Shown here: positions 20,933-27,089 of the stretch, in pieces
How positions within the stretch are numbered: position 1 is the first letter of the stretch
How the letters are laid out: the number at the start of each line of letters is the position of its first letter
From: Escherichia coli
GTDB lineage: Bacteria > Pseudomonadota > Gammaproteobacteria > Enterobacterales > Enterobacteriaceae
DNA length: 64,000 bases
Assembly (NCBI RefSeq): GCF_003334305.1
Contig: NZ_QOWS01000003.1
Direction: 5' to 3' (one strand)
Program-made: the position numbers and the translations under genes
The notes under the pieces: generated by a model
Databases searched by the model: none
What the model saw: the letters and a program-made list of their open reading frames with translations, nothing else
What the model was told of the DNA's origin: nothing

Positions 20933-23080
20933 TTATTTTTTGCTTTCTTCTTTCAATACCTTAACGGTATAGCGGCCATCAGCCTGACGGTATGCACCGT
21001 GAATATCGGTTTCAAAGCCCGGATAGTGAGCGCCGATTTCACACAGCATCTGCAGGAACTCCAGAACCGGACGGCTTTCTTCGGTGATCATTTCACCCGG
21101 CATTACCAGAGGAACTCCCGGCGGATACGGAAGGATCATATTGGCGTTAATACGACCTACCATTTCGTCGAGGTAAACTTCTTCGGTCATACCGTGCAGC
21201 TCTTTCTGGAATGCAGCATACGGAGTCATTACCATCGTCGGCAGCACTTCAAATGCGCGATACATCAGATCCGGCAGATTGTGGTGAACAATCAGTTTGT
21301 GGATATTCTGAGCCAGTTCCTGAATACGCATGTTTTCATAGAATTCAGGATCTTCACGATACAGAGACGGCAGCATGTTTTTCACACGCAGGTTCAGGTC
21401 GAACGCACGTTTGAAGTCAGTCAGAGCACGCAGCAGGCTCAGTGCTTTGGTCTTATCGATACCGATGCTGAACAGGAACAGCAGGTTATACGGACCGGTT
21501 TTCTCAACAACGATGCCATGTTCGTCGAGGTATTTCGCCACGATGCTGGCCGGAATACCAAAGTCGCTCATGGTGCCGTCTTTTTCCATCCCCGGAGTCA
21601 GCAGGGTGACTTTGATCGGGTCAAGATACATGTGCTCGTTATCGATGTTTTTGAAGCCGTGCCAGGTGCTGTCAGAACGCAGCGGCCAGCATTCAGTCGT
21701 ATCGATATGATCCGGCTGCCATACATCAAAGAACCAGCCATCAGATTCCGTTCTCAGACGTTTGATCTCTTTACGGAATTTGATCGCACGTTCAATGGAA
21801 CCGTTGATCAGACGTTTACCTGCATTGCCTTTCATCATCGCCGCAGCGGTTTCAGTGGACGCCACGATACCGTAGTGAGGAGAAGTGGTGGTGTGCATCA
21901 TGTAGGCTTCGTTAAAGGTTTCTTCGTTTACGTCACCTTTAACGTGGATCATGGAAGCCTGAGAGAACGCCGCCAGCAGTTTGTGAGTGGACTGGGTTTC
22001 GTAAATCACTTTCCCTTCTACACGGCCACCGCTCATACCGCATTTACCTTCGTAAATCGGTGAGAAGTTGGTGTAAGGCACCCACGCGGAGTCAAAGTGG
22101 ATGGATTTCACATCCAGTGTTTTCTTGATGAAGTCGGTGTTGTACAGCAGACCATCATAGGTAGAGTTGGTAATTACAGCATGTACCGGCCAGGTTGCGT
22201 TTGGTGTTTCTTTCACGCGCTTAGCAATGGTAGCGTGCTGGAATTCACTCTGTGGGATACCACCAAGAATACCGTAAGCGTTACGGGTCGGGCGGAAATA
22301 GATTGGCGTAACATCGCTCATCATCATCAGGTGGGTCAGCGATTTGTGGCAGTTACGGTCAATCAGAATGGTGCTGCCTGCCGGAGCAGAGTACATGCCA
22401 ACAATTTTGTTCGCAGTGGAAGTACCGTTGGTCACCATGTAGCTGCGGTCTGCGTTAAAGACGCGAGCGATATACTGTTCTGCTTCTTTGTGTGGACCAC
22501 TGTGATCCAGCAGAGAACCCAGTTCAGATACTGAAATGGAAATATCAGATTTCATGGTATTCGGACCAAAGAAATCATAGAACAGGCTACCTACCGGGCT
22601 TTTCTGGAATGCAGTACCGCCCATGTGACCAGGAGTACAGAAAGTATATTTACCTTCACGAACATATTTAAACAGTGCTTTAGTCAGCGGAGGCAGAATA
22701 GTGTTGATATATTCGTCAGTGGTCTGCTTGATCTTATTAGCAATATCTTCAGCAGCACCCAGCGCATATTCAAAGAAGCTAATCTGTAAACGCAGGTCAT
22801 TCAGGCTTACATCGAGAGTGGAATACGTATTAGCGAACGCGTACAACGGCAGGTTCTCGTTCATTTTGCTAATTTCTTCGCACAGCTCGAGATTATATTT
22901 ATCCCAGTCAAAAATAACGCCGCACAGACGCGCATTGTTTTCGATCAGTTTTAATAAGTCGTCACGGTCGTTCGGGTAAACAATCTGGAAGTTCAGACGT
23001 TCAAGCGCGCGATGAAGTTCACGGATGGGTTCTTCTTTAAAATAAACCCCCATGTGATTCAATATTGCAATAACGTTCAT
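20933..23080 (-). CDS. cadA: Inducible lysine decarboxylase, PLP-dependent
   Basis: Start taken at MNVIAILNHMGVYFKEE (715 aa); motifs DRNCHKS, STHKLL. Confidence 0.95.
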   Translation of the reverse strand: MNVIAILNHMGVYFKEEPIRELHRALERLNFQIVYPNDRDDLLKLIENNARLCGVIFDWDKYNLELCEEISKMNENLPLYAFANTYSTLDVSLNDLRLQISFFEYALGAAEDIANKIKQTTDEYINTILPPLTKALFKYVREGKYTFCTPGHMGGTAFQKSPVGSLFYDFFGPNTMKSDISISVSELGSLLDHSGPHKEAEQYIARVFNADRSYMVTNGTSTANKIVGMYSAPAGSTILIDRNCHKSLTHLMMMSDVTPIYFRPTRNAYGILGGIPQSEFQHATIAKRVKETPNATWPVHAVITNSTYDGLLYNTDFIKKTLDVKSIHFDSAWVPYTNFSPIYEGKCGMSGGRVEGKVIYETQSTHKLLAAFSQASMIHVKGDVNEETFNEAYMMHTTTSPHYGIVASTETAAAMMKGNAGKRLINGSIERAIKFRKEIKRLRTESDGWFFDVWQPDHIDTTECWPLRSDSTWHGFKNIDNEHMYLDPIKVTLLTPGMEKDGTMSDFGIPASIVAKYLDEHGIVVEKTGPYNLLFLFSIGIDKTKALSLLRALTDFKRAFDLNLRVKNMLPSLYREDPEFYENMRIQELAQNIHKLIVHHNLPDLMYRAFEVLPTMVMTPYAAFQKELHGMTEEVYLDEMVGRINANMILPYPPGVPLVMPGEMITEESRPVLEFLQMLCEIGAHYPGFETDIHGAYRQADGRYTVKVLKEESKK

Positions 23081-23159: not shown

Positions 23160-24494
23160 TTAATGTGCGTTAGACGCGGTGTGGTTATCCATTGAGTGGC
23201 TCTGGCGCTCGTGCATTTTGCGAGCGTAGAACATCAGGATAATCAGGCTGACGATGAAGGTACCTGCCAGCTCGAAGGAGCTTGCGCCCATCAGCGCGAT
23301 GAAGCAGAACACGCAACCCAGTACAGAGCAGATCAGGCTGACAAAGTTGCGGATGTTAACGCCTTCAAAACGAATCAGGTCAACGCAAGAGTAGAAGTAC
23401 GGCAGCATAGTCAGCAGTACTGCGATACCGGTCAGTTCACCGAACAGGTCAGATGCTTTACCACCGGCAGAGTTCATCAGAGTGATGAGGATCATCAGGG
23501 CAGTCATTTTCACTGCAGCCAGCAGCAGACCTTTTTTCGGAATACCGTTGCTGTCGACTTCACCATAAACTTTCGGGAAGTTACCGTCGTTAGCGGCACG
23601 TACACCTGCCTGGCCTACCAACATCATCCAGGAGCCCAGAGAAGTCAGGCACGCAAAGGCGGTGAATGCAGAAACCAGCGGCGCAGCCCAGTTACCGAGG
23701 ATAGTTGAAGCACTGATTGCAAACGGAGCACCGGAAGCCGCCATTACAGAAGACGGATACATACCGGAAAGCACCTGAGTCGCAGCGATATAAACAATAC
23801 CTGCTAAACCAGTACCCAGCATGGTTGCCAGCGGAACGGTACGTTTCGGGTTTTTAACCATACCAGTACTTACTGCTGCGGATTCAACACCCACGAAGGC
23901 CCACAGGCAGAGCAGAATACTTTTAATGATCGCATGACCATCAGTGGTATCCGCAGTATTCCAGTTAGCTGCATAAGTTGCCGCATCAAACCAATGCCAG
24001 CCAACAATAGCAGTCATCACCACAGGAATAAGAACCAGCACCAGACCAATAGTGGTTAAACGGCTTACCCAAGTACCGCCGAGCATATTTACAAAGGTAA
24101 ATACCCAGACGATAGCAATACAGGCGATACCCGCCGGAACAGGATCATTTAATACTGGGAAGAAGGTGGAAAGATAAGATACCGCGGTAATACCAATCGC
24201 CAGGTTACCAATCCAGTTAGCATGGTAATAAAGAACACCTGTCTGAAAACCAAATGCAGGGGAAATTTCTCCGGCATAAGCAATTGGGCCACCTTGTTGC
24301 GGGTTTTTTGTTGCCAGTCGGGCATATACATACGCCAGCGACATTGCACCAATAATAGAGATAATCCAACCCCAGATAGCAATACCACCGATACTTGCTA
24401 GGTTCGCAGGTAATAATGCAATACCGCTCCCCATCATATTACCGGCAACAACACCGGTACAGGCAAATAGCCCGATCTTCTTGGCAGAACTCAT
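23160..24494 (-). CDS. cadB: Lysine:cadaverine antiporter (APC family)
   Basis: 444-aa membrane ORF paralogous to adiC. Confidence 0.95.
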   Translation of the reverse strand: MSSAKKIGLFACTGVVAGNMMGSGIALLPANLASIGGIAIWGWIISIIGAMSLAYVYARLATKNPQQGGPIAYAGEISPAFGFQTGVLYYHANWIGNLAIGITAVSYLSTFFPVLNDPVPAGIACIAIVWVFTFVNMLGGTWVSRLTTIGLVLVLIPVVMTAIVGWHWFDAATYAANWNTADTTDGHAIIKSILLCLWAFVGVESAAVSTGMVKNPKRTVPLATMLGTGLAGIVYIAATQVLSGMYPSSVMAASGAPFAISASTILGNWAAPLVSAFTAFACLTSLGSWMMLVGQAGVRAANDGNFPKVYGEVDSNGIPKKGLLLAAVKMTALMILITLMNSAGGKASDLFGELTGIAVLLTMLPYFYSCVDLIRFEGVNIRNFVSLICSVLGCVFCFIALMGASSFELAGTFIVSLIILMFYARKMHERQSHSMDNHTASNAH

Positions 24495-24858: not shown

Positions 24859-26397
24859 TTATTCTGAAGCGAGAAATTTGTCGAGATAAGGTACAACATA
24901 AGGAACAGAAGTCTGGAATATACCATTTTCAATCCAGTAAAGGGTGTTTGCCCCTGGGCGTAAATTAAAGGCGGTGAGATATGCATCAGCTGCTTCCCGG
25001 TTCATCCCCTTCATTTCATAAACCTTGCCAAGCAATACATAATTTAGCCAGGACATTTCAAGATCAATGCCAGTATTTATCGCCTGGTAAGACTCATCTG
25101 TTTTACCTTTTACCAGAGCACTGACCGCTTTTATTTGATATATAATGGACAGGTTATTCAATTCCGGTAGTGTAACAATGTTATCTATTTCTGTGTTCAG
25201 TGCTGCTAATTGTTTTTCATCTAAAGGATGTTGAGAATGGCGCACGATATCAACTAATGCTTTTTCTGCTCTCGCGTAGGTAAATTCTGGGGATGATTGA
25301 ACAATCTCACCTAATAATTCACTGGCACGGTTCAATGATTTATCATCGCCATGCAGTAAATAATCATGTGCCTGATAAAAATTAGTTAATAACGCACCAC
25401 GATGAGGCAAAATTTGCTGGAGCGTCTCCTGCATTCGTTGTGGCCACGGTTGGTTTAACGCTTTTGATAAACTCTCCAGTAAATCATTTTGAATCGCCAG
25501 CTGATTACCGTTAGTGATGACATAACGTTTATCCAGCATGGTTGAACCATCTGCATTGTCTACCAATTTTATCGACATAAAGCATTGTTGAGCACGGTAT
25601 TGGCGCTGATTAACAAACGCAATAGATAATGTTTTACCGGAACTGCTCGGTTCATCAATGTTGTAGTTGATTTTGTCATGCACCATAAAGGTGGAGAAGG
25701 TGTTAAGTGATGTCGCCACCAAATCACCCACGCCTATCGCGTAAGAGAGCTGATACGGGGAACTCCAGCTATTACAACTTTTATTTACCATATTAATGTC
25801 AATATCGCGTGGATTGAGCAAAATACGCGATTTGCTCATCGGAAGACGTGTATCAAGACTTGAAAACGCTACCAGTGCTACACAGATACCTAAGGACAAC
25901 AGGAAAAAAAACCATACCCAAAAGGTAGTGAATCGTTTGCTTTTAACTGGGGATTGTTCAGGTGGCGTTGCGGTGTTTTGAATGTTAAGACTGTGGGAGG
26001 GAGAATCTGTGGCAGGAACCGCCTCTGGTATAGGGGGAGGCGAAGATAGCATTATTTCCTCTCCCTCTTCTTCGCTGTACCAGATAACCGGCACCATTAA
26101 TTTATAGCCGCGCTTTGGTACAGTAGCGATATAGACAGGACTATCTTCATCATTATCTTTTAATGACTTACGTAGTTCTGAGATACTCTGCGTCACAACA
26201 TGATTGGTGACAATACTTCTCTTCCAGACATTATCGATAAGTTCATCCCTGCTAAGTACTTCGCCACTGTGTTGAGCAAAGAAAACCAGAAGGTCGATTA
26301 ATCTCGGCTCAAGGGTAAGTTGACGCCCATTGCGGCTAATTTGGTTTATGGACGGAGTAACAAGCCATTCGCCAACGCGAACTACAGGTTGTTGCAT
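24859..26397 (-). CDS. cadC: ToxR-like membrane-integrated transcriptional activator of cadBA
   Basis: 512-aa ORF with N-terminal winged-helix domain, single TM, periplasmic domain; contains PPPIP. Confidence 0.9.
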   Translation of the reverse strand: MQQPVVRVGEWLVTPSINQISRNGRQLTLEPRLIDLLVFFAQHSGEVLSRDELIDNVWKRSIVTNHVVTQSISELRKSLKDNDEDSPVYIATVPKRGYKLMVPVIWYSEEEGEEIMLSSPPPIPEAVPATDSPSHSLNIQNTATPPEQSPVKSKRFTTFWVWFFFLLSLGICVALVAFSSLDTRLPMSKSRILLNPRDIDINMVNKSCNSWSSPYQLSYAIGVGDLVATSLNTFSTFMVHDKINYNIDEPSSSGKTLSIAFVNQRQYRAQQCFMSIKLVDNADGSTMLDKRYVITNGNQLAIQNDLLESLSKALNQPWPQRMQETLQQILPHRGALLTNFYQAHDYLLHGDDKSLNRASELLGEIVQSSPEFTYARAEKALVDIVRHSQHPLDEKQLAALNTEIDNIVTLPELNNLSIIYQIKAVSALVKGKTDESYQAINTGIDLEMSWLNYVLLGKVYEMKGMNREAADAYLTAFNLRPGANTLYWIENGIFQTSVPYVVPYLDKFLASE

Positions 26398-26971
26398 AAT
26401 AGAAACTCATTCGAAAAGGGAATGATGCAATGATAATTGCCACAACCTATTTTTACCATCTATAGATGGGTTTATTTACATATTATTGGTGAATGCAAGA
26501 CGTTATTTTTACCAGCCATAAACTTCTTGATTACATGGTATTAAGAAAGGATTTTACTGAGAACCAGAAGTAATATTCCTTACCATCAAAATTCATCATC
26601 TTTGCCAAAGAAAAATGTTCAGAAAATAATCCATGGAAAATTGTCCGGAGCGCTTACTATTTTAATGGATTGTTAGTCTTTGCATGAGCAAGCGGACTGA
26701 TACATTTCTCTTTGTTCTCATTCAGAAAATCTCATCAGTCGGCGTTCAGACCGGTGTTGTGCTTTATGGATGCGTTACGCTCCTGATGACGTCATTTGAC
26801 GTTCAACAACATCACGGGGCCGCACGACATTTCACGTCAGTTAGTGCTATCGCTCAGGAACAAATTTTCCCGAATTGGGATATGCCCGCAAATTGCTGGT
26901 GATGTGGGGAGAATCTGGTTGAGTTCGGGAGAATTGATTTGGAGGCAGAACGCTTAAATCGTGGCGTCCTG

Positions 26972-27003
26972 AAACGAAAAACGGACCTCCGTGGAGGTCC
27001 GTT
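26972..27003 (-). terminator. pheU rho-independent terminator
   Basis: acggacctcc-gtgg-aggtccgt hairpin with T-run on minus strand immediately 3' of the tRNA. Confidence 0.6.
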
Positions 27004-27013
27004 TATATGAATT

Positions 27014-27089
27014 TGGTGCCCGGACTCGGAATCGAACCAAGGACACGGGGATTTTCAATCCCCTGCTCTACCGACTGAGCTATCCGGGC
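27014..27089 (-). tRNA. pheU: tRNA-Phe(GAA)
   Basis: Reverse complement is GCCCGGATAGCTCAGTCGGTAGAGCAGGGGATTGAAAATCCCCGTGTCCTTGGTTCGATTCCGAGTCCGGGCACCA, 76 nt with encoded CCA. Confidence 0.95.

Follow-up and report, generated by a model that had tools for sequence, protein, structure and literature searches.

Introduction

In Escherichia coli, the tRNA-Phe gene pheU is a textbook hotspot for the integration of genomic islands. The tandem accretion of islands at a single tRNA gene is also known, for example at pheU and pheV of uropathogenic E. coli. The interval between yjdC and cadC has been treated as the standard site of pheU islands, and the islands found at pheU and pheV share one integrase (PMC7686366; bioRxiv 10.1101/549998). 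Intact P4-type integrases of these islands, such as WP_001218852.1 (pheV, ETEC strain 2011EL-1370-2) and WP_021568554.1 (pheU, strain L73), are proteins of 420 amino acids with three domains, the genes of which follow the tRNA-Phe gene. In E. coli K-12 MG1655, the spacer between cadC (b4133) and pheU (b4134) carries the pseudogene yjdQ (b4654), located on the minus strand at 4362191–4362353 of NC_000913.3. A full-text literature search for 'yjdQ' did not return any paper.

Here we describe the same spacer in a 64-kb stretch of E. coli chromosome, which is called the window throughout. Our results indicate that the spacer is very probably the fossil tRNA-proximal end of a P4-type island that an ancestor of E. 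coli once carried at the 3' end of pheU. The relic itself is already known and ordinary, since it is annotated as yjdQ; modest additions to that knowledge are its internal-deletion anatomy, its great age, the derivation of the pheU terminator from an island, and the long repeat with which it flanks a later insertion such as that of strain L73.

Results

The minus strand of the window encodes, in this order, cadB (23160–24494), cadC, the spacer, pheU, yjdC/dicD, dsbD, and cutA. The cadC gene (24859–26397) starts at 26397 and pheU, a tRNA-Phe(GAA) gene identified with ARAGORN and scoring 68.3 bits with the Rfam tRNA model (27014–27089), has its 3' end at 27014. The spacer is therefore 26398–27013, or 616 bp, in agreement with the preliminary description of this DNA, which had put it at about 600 bp and had seen no integrase-length ORF in it; the longest frame has 72 codons (26684–26902, plus strand) and is considered below. 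Starting from the tRNA, the 3' end of which is the attachment site for islands, the following segments were delineated on the minus strand: a pheU terminator formed by an 11-bp GC-rich hairpin (27004–26979) and a T-run, detected with a terminator scan (26969–27013); the rest of an island-type leader that reaches the integrase start, defined by colinear local alignments with loci L003 and L006 (26851–26968); a 5' integrase fragment of approximately codons 1 to 9 (IALTDVKC..., 26824–26850), identified by tblastn, by colinearity with the leader, and by comparison with locus L013; a 3' integrase fragment corresponding to yjdQ, with approximately codons 356 to 420 and a TAG stop (26657–26823), supported by tblastn, nucleotide blocks, and the PGAP annotation; post-integrase DNA homologous to a pheV island, found by blastn and local alignment (26545–26656); and cadC-proximal upstream DNA, delimited by segment identities (26398–26544). 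Comparison of this last segment with island sequences revealed no homology, and the cadC promoter and 5' UTR presumably lie within it. An Rfam scan at a permissive E-value returned the tRNA alone, without any known sRNA or cis element. Some clinical isolates have a spacer 100% identical to that of the window, and that of K-12 MG1655 is 98.7% identical over its full length. In K-12, a genomic-SELEX study of minor sigma factors placed an RNA polymerase holoenzyme peak in the cadC-pheU spacer (printed coordinate 4360430; PMC5493296).

The preliminary description had mentioned an integrase pseudogene, yjdQ, at this locus of K-12. This was accurate: b4654 lies on the minus strand and corresponds to 26654–26816 of the window, with the same position and sequence. 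RefSeq PGAP annotates a frameshifted 'tyrosine-type recombinase/integrase' pseudogene on the same strand, at the equivalent of 26657–26771 or 26657–26816. We searched the spacer by tblastn using as query an intact 420-aa integrase that adjoins pheV in an ETEC strain (L003) and contains the Arm-DNA-bind_3, Phage_int_M, and Phage_integrase domains. On the minus strand, this produced HSPs for residues 359–391 and 397–420 (36.6 and 30.8 bits) and a short match to residues 1–11. The 2 best HSPs together scored 67.4 bits, compared with maxima of 23.5 and 38.5 bits in 300 shuffled spacers. A spacer devoid of integrase similarity, the outcome that the preliminary description had named as fatal to its suggestion, is thus not what the search found. 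Blastn against island DNA gave matches with E = 1.7e-33 and E = 1.3e-98; the former covers 313 nt at 69% identity, running across the integrase 3' end and past it, and the leader matched that of live islands at 89.7% over 253 nt. The match to residues 1–11 (8 of 11 identical) is weak when taken alone (E = 0.13) and becomes convincing only through its colinearity with the leader and the support of L013.

Searches of the NCBIfam and PHROGs profiles with 3 spacer ORFs and with the raw or hand-repaired relic peptide returned only noise and no integrase family; at its small size and advanced decay, the relic is beyond the reach of such profiles. The identification of the relic rests instead on pairwise homology to intact neighbors and on synteny: the homology to an intact member is colinear, and the relic is located directly 3' of the tRNA gene, in the same orientation, and behind an island-type leader. 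We considered whether the spacer could be a native, never-occupied attB with integrase similarity arising by chance, as might be thought from the absence of an attR, of a long ORF, and of a profile-HMM match. This does not account for tblastn scores far above those of the 300 shuffles, for the 2 blastn matches to island DNA, for a leader, start, 3' end, and post-integrase DNA in the same order as in live islands, or for the independent annotation of a pseudogene by PGAP and in K-12. We therefore rejected this explanation, to which we assign practically no probability.

Alignment of the spacer with live islands allowed the lesions of the relic to be located. Positions 27013–26894 are approximately 95% identical to the leaders of intact pheU and pheV islands, and positions 26893–26851 correspond to a diverged leader with deletions of 12 and 22 nt. 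The start codon (26850–26848) is ATA where live genes have ATG. After the approximately 9 N-terminal codons, which end at about 26824, the relic jumps from about 26823 to about codon 356, so that approximately 1 kb comprising codons ~10 to ~355 is missing. This junction (codon ~9/356) was established in a three-way alignment including L013; tblastn alone had suggested 11/359. A global alignment with very cheap gap extension broke the 5' part of the relic into spurious micro-blocks and was replaced by tRNA-anchored local and three-way alignments. Because the leader, the start, and some 9 N-terminal codons survive, the lesion is an internal deletion and not a 5' truncation. In this the window differs from the yjdQ annotation, which spans only the 3' fragment and which PGAP flags as 'missing N-terminus', whereas the leader, mutated start, and N-terminal codons are still recognizable at 26824–27013.

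Further lesions affect the 3' fragment. At 26791 one nucleotide has been inserted (+1), and the nucleotide alignment shows a 16-nt deletion by which GVRAAY, including the catalytic Tyr378, is lost. There are also a second deletion, of 14 nt, and an in-frame stop codon (TAA) in the yjdQ part; positions 26732–26660 correspond to codons 396–420 and are followed by TAG at 26659–26657. Homology to L003 continues after the integrase for approximately 110 nt to about 26545 and, more weakly, to about 26513, and the integrase terminator hairpin in this part is degraded. The relic consequently lacks what a functional integrase has: the PF13356 and PF22022 domains are absent, codons ~10 to ~355 being deleted; of the PF00589 catalytic residues, the HGFR box falls in the deleted part and the tyrosine is gone; and the frame is broken by the ATA start, the insertion, the 2 frameshifting deletions, and the TAA. 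Compared with the intact pheU and pheV integrases, the relic has the same position and orientation after tRNA-Phe, a leader ~95% identical over the first 114 bp, and homologous start and C-terminal coding sequences; unlike these 420-aa, three-domain proteins, it keeps about 74 scrambled codons with no catalytic residue and no start.

We then analyzed the occupancy of the site. The 3' end of the tRNA reads TGGTGCCCGGACTCGGAATCGAA on the plus strand. The 64-kb window does not contain a second copy of the 23-nt tRNA 3' end with up to 3 mismatches, nor of the 14-nt tRNA tip with up to 2 mismatches, and the best local score for a degenerate attR in 26398–26700 was 7, a value equalled by 390 of 500 shuffles. 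The far boundary of the old island was not found in the 64-kb window either. The preliminary description had noted the lack of a direct repeat of the tRNA 3' end and had concluded that the pheU site appeared unoccupied. The former stands for full, tip, and degenerate copies. The latter has to be divided: no intact island or attR is present in the window, but at least 26545–27013 is homologous to pheU and pheV islands, and about 470 of the 616 spacer bp are, as judged from this homology, island-derived. The attR direct repeat that marks an occupied site is missing from the window and present in strain L73. The window therefore holds the dead oldest layer alone and no live island.

In strain L73, pheU is followed by an intact integrase gene, a 43-kb BREX island, an attR (TTCGATTCCGAGTCC-GGCACCA), the complete relic, and cadC. 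This stacked layout, in which a new island separates the relic from pheU, was followed from end to end in this one strain. A 137-bp direct repeat borders the island on both sides; it consists of the 23-bp tRNA end and 114 bp of leader, and 132 of 136 aligned positions are identical. The repeat measures 137 and not 23 bp because the relic keeps 114 bp of leader. L73 thus resembles the known cases of tandem accretion at tRNA genes, with a new island that precedes the old relic and ends in a second copy of the tRNA end. The window differs from these cases in that it has only the dead oldest layer and lacks the second att copy.

Of 5,426 genomes, 3,737 matched a 741-bp query spanning the tRNA/spacer junction without a break; the remaining ~31% have a junction disrupted by islands, IS elements, or deletions, counted together. 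In many of the interrupted genomes, including CFT073, the match ends at 26900, past the 114 bp of shared leader, and a different, intact integrase gene starts at this breakpoint. Many draft contigs end 0.1 to 3 kb past pheU (L014–L018, L022, L024, L026–L029, and others), as is expected if repeated island or IS DNA breaks short-read assemblies.

The first 114 bp of the leader are 95% identical to live islands, compared with 69% to 83% for the integrase parts, and this stretch might not be original and might have been renewed by later recombination. In strain MSB1_6C, which has an uninterrupted pheU-relic junction, positions 26929, 26960, and 27004 carry bases typical of the leaders of incoming islands. 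These bases hint that the relic may have exchanged leader sequence with later islands by recombination or gene conversion. Live-island leaders also contain the motif TG(C/T/A)GGGTA(T/C)A twice (TGTGGGTATAATTGCGGGTATA, L006 ~1335–1360), and the L73 island has a further copy close to its distal end (TGCGGGTATAATTGAGGGTACA, L006 ~44490–44520). One degenerate copy, TGCGGGCATA, is kept in the relic (26878–26893, minus strand). These motifs are candidate arm-type integrase sites.

Among 5,426 complete E. coli genomes, 5,416 contain the spacer and 5,219 retain 80% or more of its length. A DsbD-anchored scan of GTDB species genomes identified locus L013, from a divergent lineage of Escherichia that is catalogued as E. 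coli. The CadC protein encoded there is 92% identical, and the order pheU-relic-cadC is the same. In the three-way alignment, the large deletion of L013 has the same junction as that of the window. L013 retains the ATG start codon, 23 leader nucleotides, and 10 junction nucleotides, all of which are lost from E. coli. Since L013 shares the junction but keeps these pieces, the big deletion is old and the small lesions came later, in a stepwise decay.

Other arrangements were observed after pheU. In E. albertii NBRC 107761 (L014, 12493–12790), a similar leader is followed by a different integrase stump with a mutated start and the first ~43 codons, which contain small deletions, and then by unrelated AT-rich DNA; this stump represents either independent decay or a separate insertion. 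In CP089930.1 ('E. coli' E69, L012), another hairpin terminator follows pheU, and then unrelated accessory genes (12493–21695) that encode a dcm-type cytosine methyltransferase, a 1,322-aa autotransporter, and an AraC-family regulator. The 9 kb after pheU are free of integrase, relic, and cad genes. The spacer of NZ_CP063499.1 (EH10-18-47) is 100% identical to that of the window and is split in two by an internal IS1A. In strain TOK-001 (L005), an IS1B is located at the equivalent of ~26600, and cadC and cadB have been lost together with the 5' end of cadA, which carries the annotation 'missing N-terminus'. This is an IS-mediated loss of cad that starts inside the spacer, and it resembles the cad 'black holes' of Shigella and EIEC.

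Conservation is unevenly distributed along the relic. Identity between the window and L013 reaches 96% in the terminator and 94% in the 72 nt next to cadC, whereas it is 53% to 65%, with gaps counted, in the integrase pieces. A decayed middle between conserved ends fits free decay of the relic together with constraint on the ends that serve pheU and cadC. The pheU hairpin has a fold energy of −19 kcal/mol (z = −4.3). The same 45-bp segment (26969–27013) follows pheV in L003 and, in L73, follows both pheU and the attR repeat. The terminator is thus common to the leaders of intact pheU and pheV islands, and therefore borne by the mobile element. The 2 ends of the relic appear to keep housekeeping roles, in pheU termination and as the cadC upstream region. 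In strain 14EC047 (L004), this 45-bp terminator segment is the sole remnant of the spacer (locus positions 6001–6045), with the DUF4942 end of an island on one side and, on the other, a gene for a very large glycosyltransferase of the TcdA/TcdB type.

To place the locus in the wider family, we compared the surroundings of pheU in the DsbD-anchored scan, which covered at least 80 Enterobacterales loci; Salmonella and E. fergusonii are not among the loci listed. The order dsbD-yjdC-pheU is conserved in all 80 Enterobacterales loci listed. Downstream of pheU, the most widely shared gene family occurs in no more than 6 of 57 listed loci, and different genera carry unrelated sequence in the pheU 3' flank. 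Among these same loci, the window and L013 are the only ones with cadC and cadB after pheU. The GC content is approximately 37% to 46% in cadC (~40%), 32% between cadC and cadB, and 47% to 53% in cadB and cadA, and ranges from 50% to 57% on the yjdC-dsbD side.

These observations bear on a further explanation, according to which the relic would be the integrase end of a larger ancient island, with cadCBA (and perhaps dtpC and lysU) as domesticated cargo at pheU and the attR eroded. The order pheU-relic-cadC fits the tRNA-integrase-cargo order typical of islands, synteny ends at the tRNA while the other side is kept in every locus listed, the restriction of cadC and cadB to the window and L013 among these loci agrees with it, and so does the low GC of cadC and of the cadC-cadB spacer relative to the 50% to 55% beyond pheU. 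Yet the 64-kb window has no repeat of the tRNA 3' end, the composition of cadB and cadA is ordinary, and homology to islands fades by ~26513–26545, well short of cadC. The low GC of cadC could simply reflect the history of that gene. We consider this explanation unlikely, and the reading of the spacer itself as the tRNA-proximal end of an old island does not include it.

Finally, we analyzed the 72-codon ORF. Its coordinates and strand (26684–26902, plus strand) in the preliminary description match the ORF list; its proposed role as a possible integrase remnant, perhaps yjdQ, does not hold, because it runs on the strand opposite to all integrase homology. The frame is antisense to the relic and leader: it overlaps yjdQ at 26684–26816 and then crosses the dead start codon and the diverged leader to 26902. 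Alternatively, it might encode a genuine small protein and have arisen de novo, for example, on the strand opposite the pseudogene. Of the 8 strains compared, 7 keep the frame open, and it appears as a 'hypothetical protein' in the output of some pipelines, for E. coli and Shigella only (cluster of 213 members). A sigma-70-like site is present upstream of it (26602–26630, plus strand); this was the only site returned by the consensus promoter scan, which gave none on the cadC strand, and a single site is below the chance expectation of 1.6. Strain E20, in turn, has a TAG at codon 22. Codon variants among the 8 strains comprised 15 nonsynonymous, 6 synonymous, and 1 nonsense changes; the synonymous share of 27%, against the 22.5% expected from random change, gives no sign of purifying selection. 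The sequence has no Shine-Dalgarno-like purine-rich run within 15 nt before the ATG of the ORF, NCBIfam and PHROGs yielded no family match, and neither RefSeq PGAP nor the curated K-12 record annotates the frame. A small protein gene is thus very improbable, and on these sequence features the ORF is most likely a chance antisense frame and not a gene.

Discussion

The results described above suggest the following history for the cadC-pheU spacer. Judging from the live relatives, integration by a tyrosine recombinase would have put a leader and an integrase gene directly after pheU and in the same orientation. The alignments show that an internal deletion of ~1 kb then removed integrase codons ~10 to ~355, and that the start codon was lost and small frameshifting indels followed, one of them taking the catalytic tyrosine. 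The relic encodes no recombinase and has no attR partner, and is therefore immobile and fixed in the species. Its ends would have been kept for housekeeping, as their conservation suggests, the hairpin terminating pheU and the cadC-proximal end forming the cadC upstream region. The tRNA 3' end meanwhile remains an intact attB, and in L73 a new island lies before the relic, which is pushed toward cadC.

This history has practical consequences. An 'empty' pheU in E. coli is never truly empty, and pipelines that score island occupancy from the yjdC-cadC distance or from integrase hits should expect the fossil. Gene callers should not report the antisense 72-codon ORF. The repeat of approximately 137 bp could allow integrase-free loss or exchange of pheU islands like that of L73. 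Should the cad genes prove to be old cargo after all, which we hold to be unlikely, lysine-decarboxylase acid resistance, a core trait of E. coli, would be domesticated island cargo, and the cad 'black-hole' losses of Shigella and EIEC would have eliminated what was left of an old island, next to a still-active attachment site. For the spacer itself, the comparisons with live islands show that the terminator of pheU is island-borne and that at least 112 bp of island-derived DNA (26545–26656) lie upstream of cadC. The spacer would thus be a small example of dead mobile DNA kept for housekeeping signals.
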